From positions 1 through 64,000 of the forward strand of contig CAWAGQ010000003.1 in the NCBI GenBank assembly GCA_963781585.1: a DNA stretch of 64,000 bases. Reading direction: 5' to 3'. Under the pieces are notes generated by a model. That model was not told the DNA's origin. It ran no database searches and saw only the letters and a program-made list of their open reading frames with translations. Position 1 is the stretch's first letter; every line of letters starts with the position of its first letter. The position numbers and the translations under genes were made by a program. Positions 1 through 57,720 of the stretch are shown here, one piece after another. Source of the stretch: an uncultured Gemmatimonadaceae bacterium. GTDB taxonomy: Bacteria > Gemmatimonadota > Gemmatimonadetes > Gemmatimonadales > Gemmatimonadaceae.

Positions 1-372
1 CCACCCCGGCCACCGAATCGAGCAACGCCACCGCACCGTCCAGCACCCGCAGCGACCGCTCCACTTCGACCGTGAAGTCGACGTGACCCGGCGTGTGGAT
101 GATGTTGATGCGGTACTCCGGACGGCTTCGTTTTCAGTACCGGTTCCATGCCGCCGCCAGAAGCAGGTCGTGGCCGCAGACGTGATGGTGATGCCCCGCT
201 CCTGTTCCTGCTCCATCCAGTCCATGGTGGCGGCACCGTCATGGACCTCCCCCATCTTGTACGACTTGCCCGTGTAGTAGAGAATGCGCTCGGTCGTAGT
301 CGTCTTCCCGGCATCGATGTGCGCCATGATGCCGATGTTGCGATACAGGTCGAGCGGTGTTGTACGTGGCAT
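1..372 (-). CDS. fusA: Elongation factor G, N-terminal part (runs off window)
   Basis: Manual translation from ATG at 372: [35 protein letters not shown]...[19 protein letters not shown]...DTPGHVDF; not in ORF track. Confidence 0.97.
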
Positions 373-612
373 GAGTCTGGTTGAGTCGTGCGCCGGAACG
401 TCGCCGTCAGGCGCCGCGAGCCGGATCGGTGCCGATGTGGTCGGAGCGTGGCGTCCCACGGGCCCGCGCCGCGAGTGCAGCTGTCAATTGTCCGTCCGCG
501 ATCCCGTGGCGACTGCGGCGTTCGCTCAATTGGGGTCCGACCGCCAGCGACGGGCTCCGCATCCACCGCCGCTTCGGACATTCTCGCATCGACGCCGCGT
601 GGCGCCGCCACG

Positions 613-665
613 AAAAACGCGGGTGGACCAGGCGCTCCTTTTGGCAGGAGCCGGTGTCCATCCGC
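613..665 (-). terminator. Putative intrinsic terminator/attenuator hairpin upstream of fusA
   Basis: Minus strand GCGGATGGAC...GCTCCT-loop-AGGAGC...GTCCACCCGC followed by GTTTTT. Confidence 0.45.
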
Positions 666-904
666 CCTCGCCGGGTGCACCCGCTAAAGCGGATGGGGAC
701 CCACGGCGCGCCGAGTGAGCGACCTCGACGATAAATTGTCCTGCGTCGCTTTTCGGGGGGGATCACGCGATCTCGCGCTACCCCGGCCCTTCGAGAAGCC
801 CTCGCGACCGTCGCGAGCCCATGGGAGTCGACGCGCAGTTCGTCGACGTTCACGGTGCTTCCGATGACCAGTCCTGATCGCAAGACGGTCTACGGTAGCC
901 GCTT

Positions 905-940: not shown

Positions 941-1077
941 GTTACGCGGGCGGTGGCTCACCGAGCCACTACCGTTACGCGGGGTCATGTCCGGTTCGGA
1001 CAAGACCGTTACGCAGGCCCTGGTAACGGTACCAGTGCCGTTACGCGCGGTAGTGGGCAACGGGGAGAGCCATTGCC
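941..1077. repeat. Array of four GTTACGC linkers, each followed by a variable hairpin
   Basis: GTTACGC at 941, 974, 1008, 1040; stems at 949-973, 983-1007, 1016-1039, 1049-1077. Confidence 0.8.
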
Positions 1078-1180: not shown

Positions 1181-2389
1181 CTAGCCGGCACTTGGCCGCG
1201 CGAAGAGCACCTCATGAAGGTAGCGGCGCCACGCCACACTCCGACGCGCGTGTCCGGCCATGCGCTTCATCAGGCTCGGCGCCACGCCAGCGGTAACAAT
1301 CTCCTTCGGCGCGTGCCATGGCCGAATAGCACCGTGGCCGCTTCGACGTGGCCGGATGGCGGCGCTCCAGAGCACGGCGCTCAGCTGGTGCGAGGGACAG
1401 AACGCGTCCGACGGCAACAACTGCAACTCGAGATGGCGTGACAGCGGACCAAGCAGGTACTCGCTGCGATAGGGTCTCAACGCCGCCTCCACCCAGGAGG
1501 GCACGTCGAGCCCCCCGCGTGCGTGCGCAACATGAAAGGTCCAGTAGCAGCAGCTGGCTGCATGATGCGCGACCGCCTCGCGCACGATCAGATCCCAGTC
1601 CGTCGCGCCCGCATTCGTCAAAACACTGACATCCCTCACCGCGCGCCAGGCGCCGAAGCGCATCATGTGCGACCAGGCGAAGTGCACACACGTGTGCAGC
1701 AGAGAGTGGGTGGTTGACGGTACGAAGACCGAACCGGGGACACTCTCCAGGCGCCGCGCATCCTGCAGGATCTCGCTCCGGGAAAGGCCAAACCGGTGAC
1801 CCGGCACGAAAAGATCCGTATGCAGCTCCAGCCGCACCCCAGTCCCTTCGCTGTCCAGCAGGGGTGGGCCATGCTGATGCCCCTTATAGCGCCGCCGGGG
1901 ATAGTCGCCCTCTGACTCGACCCACCCAGCTCGACATGCCGCTTCAAACGCGCCCTCCATGTCCTCGGGCGCCACCAGCAGATCCAGGTCCATCATCGGC
2001 CGGTCCGTGAACGACGCATAGACCGTCTTCGCGAGCGCGGCGCCCTTGAGGAGAATCACCGGTACTCGGGCACGGTCGAACTCGCGCAGCGTCGTTTCGA
2101 GGCGGTCACCGAGCAGAGCCGCACGAAACTCGGAGATCGTCGCGAGGCGTGCCAGGCGGATCCGCTGGCTGTCGGGAACCGCCGGCGTTGAAATGGACCG
2201 CAGCTGACGCCATATCACTCCGGCGGCCCCCTCCCGCACCGCCAGCGCGATCAGCAGGTCCCAGTCGATAGACCCCTGCTCCATCTCGGCCTGCATGGCG
2301 CGCACGCCGTTGGGACCCGCGGAGGCCAGGAGCAGACGAGAGGTTGCATTCATGGGCGCGCTCTCGATTGCAGCGAGGAGGGGCAGCAT
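1181..2389 (-). CDS. Nucleotidyltransferase family protein (NTP_transf_5-like), RiPP-cluster associated
   Basis: LLKGAAL and RPMMDLDLLV motifs, ELH; start may be the ATG at 2353. Confidence 0.8.
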   Translation of the reverse strand: MLPLLAAIESAPMNATSRLLLASAGPNGVRAMQAEMEQGSIDWDLLIALAVREGAAGVIWRQLRSISTPAVPDSQRIRLARLATISEFRAALLGDRLETTLREFDRARVPVILLKGAALAKTVYASFTDRPMMDLDLLVAPEDMEGAFEAACRAGWVESEGDYPRRRYKGHQHGPPLLDSEGTGVRLELHTDLFVPGHRFGLSRSEILQDARRLESVPGSVFVPSTTHSLLHTCVHFAWSHMMRFGAWRAVRDVSVLTNAGATDWDLIVREAVAHHAASCCYWTFHVAHARGGLDVPSWVEAALRPYRSEYLLGPLSRHLELQLLPSDAFCPSHQLSAVLWSAAIRPRRSGHGAIRPWHAPKEIVTAGVAPSLMKRMAGHARRSVAWRRYLHEVLFARPSAG

Positions 2390-2392
2390 ACC

Positions 2393-3364
2393 TCAGCCCT
2401 TGGCAACACGTGACTCCGCCAGGACATCACGCTTGGCGGGCGCCGCGGCGTGCCATTCCCTGATCAATGTCACGACTTCCTCCAACCGATCAAGCTCGCG
2501 AGTGATGCTCAGGTCGTACACCGGAACCGTGTCCGCCAGTGCCGCCGCTATCTCGAAAGACCGTGCGGCAGCACGCCCGTCCAGCAGCGAGCCCAGCTTC
2601 CGATAACCAACAAACGTTAGCGCGCTCTCGGTGATGGAGCAACGCGTTCGCGTCGCGGCAGGCGTCCGCGGGTCTACCGGCGCTGGCGCAAGTCGGTAGG
2701 CCGCCTGCAACGGGGTGCGCTCCAGGCCAACCGACGAAACCGCCCCCGGCCGGTACGCCATCTTCCCGCCGAGTCGGGGGTCATGGAAGGGCAGCGCCAC
2801 CGTCGTCGCCGAATCCTCGCGCAGGCGGATGCTCTGTACGCCGGCGCGGAGCAATGGGGGATCCCCCGGATCTACGCTCAGAGTGTCGTCGGTGATGAGA
2901 CGCGCTCCCGACCGCACAAGGGCCGCCGCCAAGGTCGACTTCCCGAAGAACTTCGGTGCCAGAAACGCGATTCCCTGGCCGTCCAGATCCACTGCCGACG
3001 CATGCAGCGTGAGAACACCGCGCGCGTGGAGCGTGAAGGCAAGCACCCGCCCGAGGATGTCGGTGAGGACCGCGTCGCTGGGTTGCACGCCCCCGCTCCA
3101 CCAGGTAATCCGGGTCCCATCGGACGAAAGATCAAATGTCCCGGTGTCGTCGTAGGTGAGACGGTAGCCGGAGCGCGTTTCGTACGATCGGACCATCACG
3201 TCCGTCGTGACGAGTTCCTCGCCGAGTTTCTGCTGAACCACCGCTGGTGCGGGCTCGGCTCTTCGCTCGAGGACGCAATCGAATCGACCCTCCTCGACTG
3301 GCTCCGCGTCAGCGAGGTCAACCTCTGATCGGAGGAGGAGTCCAAAAACAGAATAGGTAGGCAC
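2393..3364 (-). CDS. HPr kinase-like protein (candidate lasso peptide kinase)
   Basis: LHASAV, variant P-loop APKFFGKST, LITDD. Confidence 0.8.
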   Translation of the reverse strand: MPTYSVFGLLLRSEVDLADAEPVEEGRFDCVLERRAEPAPAVVQQKLGEELVTTDVMVRSYETRSGYRLTYDDTGTFDLSSDGTRITWWSGGVQPSDAVLTDILGRVLAFTLHARGVLTLHASAVDLDGQGIAFLAPKFFGKSTLAAALVRSGARLITDDTLSVDPGDPPLLRAGVQSIRLREDSATTVALPFHDPRLGGKMAYRPGAVSSVGLERTPLQAAYRLAPAPVDPRTPAATRTRCSITESALTFVGYRKLGSLLDGRAAARSFEIAAALADTVPVYDLSITRELDRLEEVVTLIREWHAAAPAKRDVLAESRVAKG

Positions 3365-3416
3365 GGCCGGTCGATCAGAGGGGGCGGCAGTTGTCGATCA
3401 TCACTTGGTCAGGCAA

Positions 3417-3433
3417 TGCAAAGCCGACGCCAG
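3417..3433 (-). promoter_or_regulatory. Possible sigma54 -24/-12 promoter for the kinase-nucleotidyltransferase genes
   Basis: CTGGCGTCGGCTTTGCA with correct GG-N10-GC spacing, about 50 nt before the kinase start. Confidence 0.4.
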
Positions 3434-3554
3434 ACGAGCCCGATTTTCACGCAAGCACCGCCTCGGCTGCAGCTCCGAATGGGGGGTTCGATGCTTCCCG
3501 TCGGACCCGCGCCGCTTAGGGCATCGCTGGTTACGGTGCGGCGCCCCCGCAACG

Positions 3555-3597
3555 AAAATGCCGCATCCGCTCTGCAATAGCAGAAGCGGAAGCGGCA
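3555..3597 (-). terminator. Putative terminator downstream of the precursor gene
   Basis: TGCCGCTTCCGCTTCTGC-TATT-GCAGAGCGGATGCGGCA-TTTT on the minus strand. Confidence 0.55.
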
Positions 3598-3713
3598 CAC
3601 CGATGAAGCGGGCTACGCCCTTCAGATAGACCTATGACGCGTCGAGATCAGCAGATCAGGCCAAAGCCGTCGGTCGCGTTACAAGAGTGCTTCCGACGTC
3701 GCACGCCTTCGAC

Positions 3714-3854
3714 TCAGGAACGGGGAGGCATCCCCTTGTCATATCCCTGTCCGGGGTACACCAAGTCCGCCGCAAACAAAACGGTCTTTCCAGGAATGGA
3801 CAGAGTCAGTTCGCGAAAGCTGCCGAACCGCTGTAGCTGGGGTGTCTCGTACAT
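3714..3854 (-). CDS. Lasso-type RiPP precursor peptide, 46 aa
   Basis: MYETPQLQRFGSFRELTLSIPGKTVLFAADLVYPGQGYDKGMPPRS; YxxPxL and Gx5T leader motifs; GGAGG RBS; absent from the ORF track. Confidence 0.88.
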   Translation of the reverse strand: MYETPQLQRFGSFRELTLSIPGKTVLFAADLVYPGQGYDKGMPPRS

Positions 3855-3890
3855 CCTCGCCTCCAGAGAATTAAGATATCCCTAGGTAGT

Positions 3891-3907
3891 AGCAAGTCTC
3901 ATACCAG
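3891..3907 (-). promoter_or_regulatory. Sigma54 (RpoN)-type -24/-12 promoter of the precursor gene
   Basis: CTGGTATGAGACTTGCT matches YTGGYAYR-N4-TTGCW, 36 nt before the ATG. Confidence 0.7.
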
Positions 3908-3956
3908 TCGTGGTCTACCTGCCGCCATGTCTGCACCCACGCTTGGGGCCTCCAAG

Positions 3957-5864
3957 CTAGGCCCGCCGCTCCCGGTCCGCAAGCCATCTCTCGGTCAGCA
4001 AGGTCATCAAAAGTCGCGATCCCAGCAGGTGCCCGCCCTGCTCGGCATATACTGCCGATGCCCGACGGAGCAGACCTACGTCCACGAGGCCCATTCTGAT
4101 GAGAACCGCTGACCCGCCGACGCGGAATGTGGTCTCGATTCGGGACGGAAGCGCCTTGAGCAGGCTGCGCTGGACGTAGTCCACGGGCGCCCCGGTCTTG
4201 GAGGGGCGCGGCGCAAGCACCGAGTCCGGGAGTAGCCCCCGCATGGCGTGGCGGAGAAGCACCTTGATCTCGTCGTTCCGGTTCCGCTCCTCAATGGGCC
4301 TCCGTGCGGCGAATTCGACGATCCGCCGATCCAGGAATGGCGAGCGAAGCTCCACTCCCTCGTCCCAGGCGAAAGCGTGAGTCGCCGACGCCAATCGCCA
4401 GAGCAGTGGGTTCGTGAGCAGATACCGCGCCTCGAACGCGGCGGCGCCCTCCCCGGCCAGTCGAGCGCTCACCGGCGGCCGCAGGGCGCGCGAGAGGCCC
4501 GCCGTGAGACGCAACCAATCGGGCGCGGTGAAATCCCAGAATCCGTGAAGCGGCCGTCCACGGACAGCGCCGATCCAATCGATTGTGTCCGGCGCGAGCA
4601 AGGGAAGGATGCATGCGCGCAGGAAGTCGCGTACGTCGTTTCGGCCCCACTGCCGCCAGGCGGCAACCAGGCGCGAGACCTCACCCCGACGCAGGTGGTC
4701 GGCAAGCACGGCGCTGGATGCCATGAAGAGGAAATCTCCCCCGTTTCCGTCGAAGGCCACACGCGCGCCGAGCGACCGGGTCACCTGAGCCAACCGCCGC
4801 TGCACCGCCTCGAATGGGTGCGCCATCGGGTCGTCGCGCCGCCATGCCATCGCGTCGAGCGGGTCCAGGAGAGGAATATCATCTACGGATAGCCAGCTCA
4901 CGGGCACTCGCCAATGAGCAGCGATCGCCGTAATAAGCTCGTCCTCGCGGCCCCGGTCGCCGGGCGGATACGAAAGCGAAACCGGTAACACTTCCACCGG
5001 CGGTGCACCCCGCGCTGACATCGCGCTCCGTGCCGAAGCGAACAGGGCAGGGGAATCCCAGCCGCCGCTCATCCAGACCACTCCCCTCCCCTGTCTGGGA
5101 AGCCGTGCTACCATCGCGTCCTCCAGCAGGCCGCGCAGTTCCACGGCGCCCTGGTCGAGCGAGCTGCTGTTTCCGCTGTCGGAGAACTCCGTGGGTGCCC
5201 ACTGATGGAGGAGGTACGGCCGCCCTCCGCGCTCGATGCAGACCGTGCCTCCGGGAGGCACTACCCGCACCGCCCCGAATGCTGTTCGATCTCCGGGCAG
5301 CGCCAGCCCCGCGGCTGAGGTCGCGATCATGTCCAGGTCGTAATCCGACGGGACACCCGGAAAGTCTGCCACCGCGCTTGCGGTCGAGGCCACCACCACC
5401 GTGCCGTCGTCCGCCACCGCGTAGTTCAGCGAGCGTCGCCCGCCGAACTCACGCACCAGCAGCAGCCGCCAAGACCTCTTGTCGAAGACGATGAGGGCGT
5501 AGTCACCCTCGAGATGGCGCGCGACGTCGGTGCCCCACACGCGAACTGCCGCGGCCACCAGTTCCGCCGACGCCGAACGGCTGGGCAGCGCCCCACGGTC
5601 GGACAAGCGGCGACGCAAGTCGGCGAGATAGTACAGACTGGCATCAGCGGCTATGACGTGGCTCTCCGTTTCGTAGACGACGGGTCCCGTCCAGCCACTG
5701 AGTTCGGCTTCCCATGGGTGGCGCCCCCCTGCGACCACCGATGAGTCATCGCTCCAGAATTCGATCGACCCGTCCCCGGATGCGAACGTCCCGCCCAGCA
5801 TGGCGGCTACGGCCGTCGGGTTGTCATGGGCGAGCGGCCCGAATGCAGCGGCCAGTGCGGTCAC
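3957..5864 (-). CDS. Lasso cyclase (asparagine synthetase-like, C protein)
   Basis: SGGWDS PP-loop, DGNGGD, RSPFLDRRIVEF, K..LR..M..LLP; GTG start overlaps the B2 stop; no N-terminal catalytic Cys. Confidence 0.88.
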   Translation of the reverse strand: MTALAAAFGPLAHDNPTAVAAMLGGTFASGDGSIEFWSDDSSVVAGGRHPWEAELSGWTGPVVYETESHVIAADASLYYLADLRRRLSDRGALPSRSASAELVAAAVRVWGTDVARHLEGDYALIVFDKRSWRLLLVREFGGRRSLNYAVADDGTVVVASTASAVADFPGVPSDYDLDMIATSAAGLALPGDRTAFGAVRVVPPGGTVCIERGGRPYLLHQWAPTEFSDSGNSSSLDQGAVELRGLLEDAMVARLPRQGRGVVWMSGGWDSPALFASARSAMSARGAPPVEVLPVSLSYPPGDRGREDELITAIAAHWRVPVSWLSVDDIPLLDPLDAMAWRRDDPMAHPFEAVQRRLAQVTRSLGARVAFDGNGGDFLFMASSAVLADHLRRGEVSRLVAAWRQWGRNDVRDFLRACILPLLAPDTIDWIGAVRGRPLHGFWDFTAPDWLRLTAGLSRALRPPVSARLAGEGAAAFEARYLLTNPLLWRLASATHAFAWDEGVELRSPFLDRRIVEFAARRPIEERNRNDEIKVLLRHAMRGLLPDSVLAPRPSKTGAPVDYVQRSLLKALPSRIETTFRVGGSAVLIRMGLVDVGLLRRASAVYAEQGGHLLGSRLLMTLLTERWLADRERRA

Positions 5865-6379
5865 ATTCTCTCGAAAACGTTCAAGCCGTCCACTTCGCGC
5901 AGGTCGGTTACCTCCGACTCCGAGTCGATCAGCTTCGCGCCGGCGTACTCCACCCATGCATGTGCTTTCAAGGCGCCGTCCCGCATCTGGACGCCCACTC
6001 GCACCTGTGCCCCCTGCAGGTGGGCGCGGTCAAGGAGCATGCGTGTGGCAAGCGCCCGCGCCAGGCATGACCCACGGACCAGGCCGTGCTCCGCCACGCG
6101 GCGCACGGCGATGGCGAGCTCGCGCGCCCGGTCAACGCGCTCCGGCAACGTGGCAGCCGACATCCCATCGGGCGTCGGGACCGCCGAAAGCAGCGTACCG
6201 CGTTTCCTGAATCTCAGCGTAAGTCGGGCTTCCACCAGCGCGAGTTGCGCGCGGACCAGGTCGCCCTGTGCCCGTGGCGGGAGCCTACGGAGCGTCCGCA
6301 GGCGATGAAGAATGGCCCGGCCCCTCGACTGGCGTCTCGCCGGCCGCCGATGTGGCCAGCCCCGCGGCCACCAGCTCAC
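5861..6379 (-). CDS. Lasso leader peptidase B2 (transglutaminase-like)
   Basis: CLARALA and AHAWVE catalytic Cys/His motifs; start uncertain, probably nearer 6310. Confidence 0.88.
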   Translation of the reverse strand: MSWWPRGWPHRRPARRQSRGRAILHRLRTLRRLPPRAQGDLVRAQLALVEARLTLRFRKRGTLLSAVPTPDGMSAATLPERVDRARELAIAVRRVAEHGLVRGSCLARALATRMLLDRAHLQGAQVRVGVQMRDGALKAHAWVEYAGAKLIDSESEVTDLREVDGLNVFERM

Positions 6380-6626
6380 GCAGGAATTCGATCGTGTCGC
6401 GGCGAATGCGTTCGATACTCACGTTGGCGAACTCGCGGGCCAGCACCGCGATCATCTCGCTGAAGGTCCTGGAATTCGGCGGCAGCAGGGACCAGATCCG
6501 GGCGCCAACGCGATTCACGCCGAAATACACTTCGTCGTCGGTGGACAGCAGCACGCCGCCCTCGTCGAGTTGTTTGAACACGACCGACGGGCTCGGAACG
6601 GGTAGGGCAAAATCGGATTCGGTCAT
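6285..6626 (-). CDS. PqqD-family RiPP recognition element (lasso B1)
   Basis: LDEGGVLL...YFGVNRVGARIWSLL...FLRELVAAGL; ATG at 6626 with upstream AGGAG. Confidence 0.88.
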   Translation of the reverse strand: MTESDFALPVPSPSVVFKQLDEGGVLLSTDDEVYFGVNRVGARIWSLLPPNSRTFSEMIAVLAREFANVSIERIRRDTIEFLRELVAAGLATSAAGETPVEGPGHSSSPADAP

Positions 6627-6783
6627 GGCTGTGGCCCGCGCTCCTGACGCTGTCCCTGCCGCCGGCGATCCGGGAGGGCTACTGCACTCCTCCAGGACGC
6701 TGACAACCCCTACGTGCACGCGAGGTGCAGACTGCCCGAGTACTTCGACGCCCGGCACGGCCGAGGAGTCACGCCGCCGCGCG

Positions 6784-7254
6784 TTACCAGCGATAGTGCG
6801 CGAACGCCTTGTTGGCTTCCGCCATCCGGTGAGTGTCTTCCTTCTTCTTGATCGCGTTCCCCTCACCCTTCGACGCGGCGATGACTTCAGCTGCGAGCTT
6901 CTCGGCCATTGACTTCTCGTTCCGATCGCGGGAATAGAGAATCAGCCAGCGCATGCCGAGCGCGGTGCGGCGCTCCGGGCGCACCTCGACCGGTACCTGG
7001 TAGGTGGCGCCGCCGACGCGACGGCTCTTCACCTCGACCACGGGTTTGAGATTGGACAGCGCCTGCTTGAAGACGTTGACACCCGGTTGACTGGTGCGCG
7101 ATTCAACGAGGTCCATGGCGCCGTAAAAAATCCGCTCGGCGACCGACTTCTTTCCCTCGTACATGAGGCAGTTGATGAACTTCGAGACGGTCTGGCTGTC
7201 GTAGCGCGCGTCGGCGAGCACCGGGCGCTTGATCCCCTTTTTCCGTCGACTCAC
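6784..7254 (-). CDS. rpsG: 30S ribosomal protein S7
   Basis: [15 protein letters not shown]...[15 protein letters not shown]. Confidence 0.99.
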
Positions 7255-57478: not shown

Positions 57479-57720
57479 GTAGCTCGTCGCCCCGTGCACG
57501 AAGACCAGATCCTGTGCTACGACGAGCCAGCGCGGGCGCCCGACACCGTGATCCGGCACCACACACCTGTGGCGAACGCTCCATGTGCACCGGCACAGCT
57601 GGCCTGTGCGCCATCGCACACACGGCCGCCGAGCCGAACCCGACGTTACCTGGCGTAACGTTTCCACCGCGCGCGTAACGGAGTGTGTGGAGAACCGGGC
57701 GCCGCCGTCGCCGGAGGCGG

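Follow-up and report, generated by a model that had tools for sequence, protein, structure and literature searches.

Close to the start of contig C3, in a genome bin of 5.7 Mb (67% G+C, 93.5% complete, 7.19% contamination), the minus strand reads in the order rpsG, a lasso-peptide-like gene cluster, an array of phased hairpins, a promoter with its leader RNA, and fusA, which starts at position 372 (table 1). Positions are those of the window, by which we mean the whole 64-kb stretch of DNA that was analyzed. The lasso-peptide-like cluster (window 1181–6800, minus strand) sits in the rpsG–fusA junction, inside what is usually the str operon. Its last gene, encoding a nucleotidyltransferase, is also found directly upstream of the leader in the same-genus genome (G001) and in G009 and G024, and homologs of it occur in 50 of 121 family genomes, a count that includes two unpublished genomes, G008 and G050. 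A separate hairpin directly follows the nucleotidyltransferase stop codon (1181), and the array lies 103–240 nt downstream of that codon, with minus-strand units on either side.

Window 1–726 duplicates contig C4:1–729 with 98.35% identity and 3 gaps. Both copies are contig ends, in opposite orientation, and contigs C3 and C4 probably join at this overlap. Because the first 726 bases are duplicated at the C4 end, we consider the broken frame of fusA at ∼120–150 a contig-end flaw.

Table 1. Coordinates of genes and features at the rpsG–fusA junction (window positions; a dot in the strand column marks hairpin units)
Feature	Position	Strand	Remarks
fusA (EF-G), 5' part	1–372	−	contig start; frame broken near 120–150
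fusA leader RNA	610–900	−	starts GGCT (900–897); terminator stem and T-run (617–613)
leader promoter	905–933	−	−35 TTGACT 933–928, 17-nt spacer, −10-like CAAATT 910–905
linker 1, GTTACGC	941–947	+	7 nt upstream of leader promoter −35
hairpin U1	949–973	.	arms 949–959 and 963–973, loop ACC; one C-A mismatch, one G-T pair
linker 2, GTTACGC	974–980	+	CC before, GGG after
hairpin U2	983–1007	.	arms 983–993 and 997–1007, loop GTT; one A-A mismatch
linker 3, GTTACGC	1008–1014	+	
hairpin U3	1016–1039	.	arms 1016–1025 and 1030–1039, loop ACGG; one C-T mismatch
linker 4, GTTACGC	1040–1046	+	
weak fourth unit U4	1049–1077	.	candidate stems 1049–1056/1070–1077 or 1056–1063/1070–1077; no linker after U4
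NTP_transf_5 nucleotidyltransferase gene	1181–2389	−	last gene of lasso-peptide-like cluster
HPr-kinase-like gene	2393–3364	−	weak match, below Pfam's cut-off
asparagine-synthase-type (cyclase) gene	3957–5957	−	lasso-peptide-like cluster
rpsG	6808–7248	−	

The array is built on the heptamer GTTACGC, confirmed on the plus strand with starts at 941, 974, 1008, and 1040 and thus periods of 33, 34, and 32 nt, as an earlier note on this DNA had described. Folding likewise bore out its description of the three linker-to-linker spacers as stems of 10–11 bp with one mismatch each, whose ends in U1–U3 abut the next linker directly; successive stems of the U1–U4 array are 7–9 nt apart. As plus-strand RNA, U1, U2, and U3 fold with −14.3, −13.7, and −12.0 kcal/mol, a stability equaled by 37, 20, and 32, respectively, of 5000 mononucleotide shuffles, and energies as low are reached by 0.8–2.8% of random 26-mers from the genome. 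The fourth stem of the earlier note did not stand up to the same comparison, since its plus-strand energy of −9.9 kcal/mol was matched by 761 of 5000 shuffles; the alternative hairpin in this unit (1056–1063/1070–1077) is better on the minus strand, with −11.9 kcal/mol. All four units in fact fold somewhat better on the minus strand (−15.5, −14.9, −13.0, and −11.9 kcal/mol for U1–U4) than on the plus strand, and among the matches listed in a genome-wide hairpin scan, the array registers as a run of four hairpins on the minus strand only. The minus-strand fold of 925–1185 has a z score of −2.85, with 2 of 200 shuffles folding as well.

With U1–U3 aligned from the stem base, 28 of the 32 stem cells are Watson–Crick pairs, one is a G-T pair, and three are mismatches, one per stem, at positions 3, 5, and 4 counted from the base. 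Stem positions 1, 2, 6, and 7 are invariant, and seven positions have changed on both sides with pairing kept, in agreement with the earlier claim that pairing is maintained between units whose sequence is not conserved. Arm identity among U1, U2, and U3 is 40–60% even with the fixed GG/CC base counted in, so that the stem interiors are about as similar as expected by chance. The 7-mer linker is identical in all four copies while the stems vary, and the true conserved element is CC-GTTACGC-N-GG, the ends of which form the bases of the neighboring stems. In global folds the arms of U1 pair with those of U4, suggesting that U4 is a diverged copy of U1.

GTTACGC has seven matches on both strands of the whole window and 238 on both strands of the genome, a count lower than the median for 7-mers of equal composition (613), and this rarity in window and genome argues that the phasing of the linkers is not due to chance. 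A pattern of two linkers 22–30 nt apart was found at this locus only in the whole genome. Any 7-mer occurring at least four times at 28–40 nt spacing was found at four loci genome-wide, comprising two 36-bp tandem repeats with 13–15 7-mers in common between units, one G+C-rich low-complexity run, and the present array, in which a single 7-mer is common to the units. The 36-bp repeats, of five copies each, are at C4:880384–880537 and C10:67765–67931. Neither the linker-pair scan nor the 7-mer recurrence scan revealed a second such array in the genome. Hairpin runs, by comparison, are not special by themselves because they are common in a genome of 67% G+C: at least 129 runs of three or more strong hairpins at 26–45 nt spacing were counted on the two strands. 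What is nonrandom is therefore that an invariant linker recurs in phase with the stems. Tandem Repeats Finder has no entry at 941–1077 among its 51 rows, the units being too unlike for it, and a blastn-short search of 931–1180 against the 5.7-Mb genome returned the region itself and chance words of 13–22 nt only. The one other place where two GTTACGC copies lie within 60 nt of each other is window 57640–57680, on the minus strand, where the copies (57653/57673) are 20 nt apart and adjoin a GTTAC/GTAAC inverted pair.

The same-genus genome retains both flanks of the array at ∼92% identity and lacks the array. Its leader and promoter are ∼92% identical up to window 948 and its nucleotidyltransferase is 88% identical as a protein; at the position homologous to linker 1, it has GTTAGGC, once only, followed by unrelated sequence that is ∼110 nt shorter. 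This equivalent stretch is not unusually structured (fold z = +0.46 vs. −2.85 here). Among 400 other family genomes, the three-linker pattern occurs in one, as a perfect 32-bp tandem repeat without variable hairpins. A three-linker scan of the species collection gave at least 121 loci, and among the matches listed, none has differing strong hairpins; the spacers of these matches are near-identical repeats, or in one instance (L060) two like spacers differing by an indel. In metagenomes, a search with two extended linkers found 49 loci, all of them plain tandem repeats or two-linker coincidences, and a 22-nt promoter word common to this and the same-genus genome had 0 matches. The regions that precede the leader in 19 family loci contain no phased linker array, and candidate 7-mer repeats in two of these regions (L021 and L014) proved on reading to be without hairpins. 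The array thus appears to be private to one genome or lineage among those searched.

The earlier note had proposed a structured RNA or single-stranded DNA family. Such a family is not supported, since the array is absent from a relative whose flanks are still ∼92% identical, and a lack of conservation in relatives is the very outcome that the earlier note had named as refuting it. The same-genus genome and two other genera (L013 and L006) have the order nucleotidyltransferase–leader–fusA but not the array, and the intergenic regions of the two other genera contain other structures and no linker array. Since relatives with this gene order do without the array, whatever function it may have is dispensable. 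We also considered the array as the boundary of an island and rejected this, given that the same order is present in the two other genera.

The promoter that the earlier note had assigned to fusA, with its −35 at 928–933, is real and recurs in 18 of 20 sequences, but what it drives is a leader RNA of ∼290 nt rather than the fusA start. Its layout in these 18 sequences is TTGACw, a spacer of 16–17 nt, TAnATT, and a GGCT start; the two exceptions are L013, where the RNA has no promoter match, and L021, which lacks the exact 3' word. A consensus promoter scan detected no promoter at 933–905, so the element is recognized solely through its conservation. The leader RNA lies upstream of fusA in 19 of 19 family loci fetched, with the EF-G start downstream in 18. 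Its 3' domain has three helices, and 15 of the 37 predicted pairs show compensatory changes. Of 101 genomes of the class, 15 have a match to a covariance model of the leader, the distribution by family being 5/5 in this family, 8/20 in a sister family, 1/4 in a third, and 0/71 in six others. In all 12 loci fetched for these matches, the EF-G start follows the leader match on its strand, at a distance of 11 to ∼235 nt. Rfam 15 has no leader match in the window or in the 19 loci. One locus from the unpublished genome G008 (L017) is a row of the leader alignments and of the covariance model and is counted among the 19 family loci and the 20 promoter sequences; the conclusions on the array are independent of the unpublished genomes G008 and G050. 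An identification of the leader as 6S RNA was discarded, as RF00013 finds nothing in the 93.5%-complete genome and both the fold and the fixed place before fusA are unsuited to it. The gap between the leader terminator and fusA (window 373–605) is ∼235 nt here, compared with ∼45 nt in the same-genus genome and 11–62 nt in the other loci worked out, and it represents a second lineage-specific sequence gain at the locus.

No known family had been recognized for the array in the earlier note, and a search of Rfam 15 is in accord, with no credible match at the array; the sole overlapping match, RF02880, scores 13.3 bits against a gathering score of 123 (E = 0.99). Four ORFs across the array matched 0 Pfam families. 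CsrB and RsmZ sponges carry repeated GGA motifs in hairpin loops or linkers, and the CsrB-like reading offered in the earlier note fails because there is no GGA in the array loops (ACC, GTT, ACGG, or their complements) or in the linker. ToxI-like RNAs of type III toxin–antitoxin systems consist of tandem repeats that are nearly identical, with a toxin gene downstream on the same strand. That candidate was rejected on account of unit arms that are merely 40–60% identical; downstream of the array are, on the minus strand, the promoter and leader RNA and, on the plus strand, the antisense of the nucleotidyltransferase gene. Integron attC sites have a GTTRRRY core paired with an inverse core, are 57–141 nt long, and lie near an integrase. 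They too were rejected, because position 5 of GTTACGC does not fit the core, the units measure 32–34 nt, and no inverse core is in register.

Minisatellites resemble the array in being head-to-tail, lineage-specific, and intergenic, with a period of ∼33 bp. The difference is that units of the array share 7–12 nt, whereas in the two true 36-bp repeats of this genome the unit is shared in full. Like a CRISPR, the array alternates a constant short element with unrelated variable segments, but its constant part is 7–12 nt and not at least 23 nt, its variable parts are palindromes, and no cas genes are nearby. A genuine CRISPR array of this genome, on contig C7 (∼397.7–401.2 kb) and with a repeat of 36 nt, is unrelated to the hairpin array.

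The head motif of REP elements is of GTAG type. The array has an invariant 7-mer beside each one-mismatch hairpin; this 7-mer is not of that type and the palindromes are not conserved. The REP-like alternative of the earlier note is disfavored by the absence of any other genome copy of the hairpins, of a REP-type multicopy family, and of an associated RAYT. In the portions of two reports on REP and BIME clusters that we draw on, including Escherichia coli REP325, these clusters are like the array in having imperfect palindromes, short linkers, and intergenic or 3' positions, and they have been proposed to act in mRNA stability and termination (PMC3333891, PMC4550694). REP units make up one conserved sequence family that numbers tens to hundreds of copies, most often alternates in orientation, and is accompanied by a RAYT gene (PMC3333891, PMC4550694). 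Unlike REP/BIME, the array hairpins are each unique in the genome and all direct, only the linker is conserved, and there is no RAYT association. One PF01797 (Y1, HUH) transposase gene of IS200 type is encoded 315 kb away (C3:316227–316583), and the hairpins that flank it are unrelated to those of the array. On the 3' side of the Y1 gene, C3:316076–316170 holds four unlike strong hairpins in tandem, and clusters of unlike hairpins therefore also occur elsewhere in this genome.

What we observe is the anatomy of the array, its position between co-directional units, the maintenance of pairing, and its confinement to one genome. From these observations we infer transcription of the array, termination or stabilization by it, and any role of the linker. 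We tentatively favor, at a confidence short of even, a lineage-specific hairpin cluster that works through the minus-strand transcript, whether as terminator, 3'-end block, or insulator. It is the best fit to the position before the promoter, the better folding of the minus strand, and the kept pairing, and constraint on structure is argued by pairing in 29 of 32 stem cells despite the low identity of the arms. The G+C-rich hairpins would then belong to the 3' untranslated region of the minus-strand operon, whose last gene encodes the nucleotidyltransferase. As RNA polymerase leaves the operon, we predict that the transcript folds into three or four successive stem-loops, which would halt or delay the polymerase without a U-tract, obstruct 3'-to-5' exonucleases, or do both. 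The 3' end of the operon would thereby be set and the fusA-leader promoter shielded from read-through.

There is a precedent of this kind. From RNA-seq in 13 genomes, hairpin clusters have been proposed to terminate transcription, and the part of that study used here describes hairpins <15 nt apart after stop codons as intrinsic termination units for which poly-U is not needed (Gupta and Pal 2021, PMC8355165). The array is similar in having several stem-loops <15 nt apart after the last stop codon of an operon, no U-tract, and a G+C-rich host genome. It differs in that 98% of sites, by the figure given in that part of the study (PMC8355165), are ≤80 nt from the stop, whereas the array starts 103 nt after it, and in carrying an invariant 7-nt linker in register. 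A consensus scan for a hairpin plus T-run on both strands of 300–1400 returned 0 terminators. The organism does have classical terminators, as the adjacent leader RNA uses a canonical stem and T-run. Against termination stand the missing U-tract after every array stem, the distance of 103 nt from the stop codon, the dispensability of the array in relatives, and the frequency of strong-hairpin runs in the genome (at least 129). A terminator also leaves the combination of an invariant linker with differing stems unexplained.

The main rival is that the array is a functionless, fast-evolving palindromic minisatellite, in which a 33-bp quasi-palindromic unit expanded locally and pairing was kept through hairpin-templated correction during replication, not through selection. 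Templated correction of quasi-palindromes is an established process. Restriction of the array to one genome is consistent with this origin, the closest relative having a single GTTAGGC and unrelated sequence, and so is the failure to find a homolog in the family genomes, the species collection (among the matches listed), or the metagenomes searched. The cross-pairing of arms that makes U4 recognizable as a putatively diverged U1 points the same way, as does the other sequence gained by this lineage between the leader terminator and fusA (∼235 vs. ∼45 nt). The flanks, however, are ∼92% identical to those of the same-genus genome, yet the interiors of the U1–U3 stems are at about chance similarity, so simple recent duplication and drift do not fit. 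Nor would neutral drift predict a linker identical at 7/7 positions in four copies beside stems that vary. On balance we regard a neutral minisatellite as rather unlikely, though a serious competitor of the transcript-acting hairpin cluster.

The linker being the sole invariant part, the array could instead be a set of DNA sites for a factor that binds GTTACGC at a spacing of about three helical turns and modulates the leader promoter, an idea also raised in the earlier note. Linker centers are at about −44, −77, −111, and −143 from the putative start at 900, and the pair at window 57653/57673, the one further instance genome-wide of two GTTACGC copies within 60 nt of each other, would be in keeping with such a factor. 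Several observations make this improbable. Neither the same-genus genome nor any other relative has the array at its copy of the promoter, GTTACGC shows no enrichment in the genome (238 vs. a median of 613), spacings of 33, 34, and 32 nt drift by ∼0.4 helical turn across the array, and DNA sites would not explain why the spacers are palindromic.

We consider it very unlikely that the array is a platform for a protein recognizing structure plus motif on RNA or single-stranded DNA, such as a REP/RAYT-like system, IS200/IS605-like ends, or an RNA-binding sponge, with each unit made of a hairpin foot and an invariant single-stranded 7-mer. Direct repetition of an invariant short motif beside a one-mismatch hairpin is what such a platform would look like, REP clusters with linkers are known from 3' regions in the portions of the reports considered above (PMC3333891, PMC4550694), and the genome encodes one Y1 (HUH) transposase. 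That gene, however, is IS200-type, occurs once, lies 315 kb away, and is flanked by unrelated hairpins; the array hairpins have no further genome copy and there is no second array, and neither an Rfam family nor GGA in the loops nor presence in relatives speaks for a platform.

A highly improbable but more novel explanation is that the layout records an undescribed site-specific process or recognition system, in which hairpin segments were added or selected beside CC-GTTACGC-N-GG, so that, on RNA or single-stranded DNA, a dedicated nuclease or binding protein would recognize in each unit a hairpin foot together with a single-strand motif. We retain it because U1–U3 stems of about chance similarity together with an invariant linker are predicted by neither drift nor a plain terminator. 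An assembly or polishing artefact near the contig end is extremely unlikely, for although the first 726 bases duplicate the end of C4 (98.35%, 3 gaps), the fusA frame is broken, and the bin has 7.19% contamination, the array is 215 nt inside unique sequence, both its flanks are collinear with the same-genus genome, and random errors do not produce an exact 7-mer four times over in phase with three almost perfect stems.

Most likely, then, the array is not a new RNA family but a local cluster of terminator-like hairpins. In itself it is of little weight, a single-genome case of a stem-loop cluster arising between co-directional transcription units, with one unexplained feature, the invariant 7-mer between unrelated palindromes. 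The more notable result is its context, a conserved fusA leader with its own promoter, covariation support, and a terminator, which is restricted to this order and not in Rfam. This leader probably acts as a regulated attenuator. For other phyla, predictions of attenuators ahead of fusA or rpsL are set out in the part of the survey relevant to these genes (PMC2965389), suggesting that the leader belongs to an already known kind, and it is a better experimental target than the array. The junction between rpsG and fusA holds a lasso-peptide-like cluster in this genus and in at least two others.
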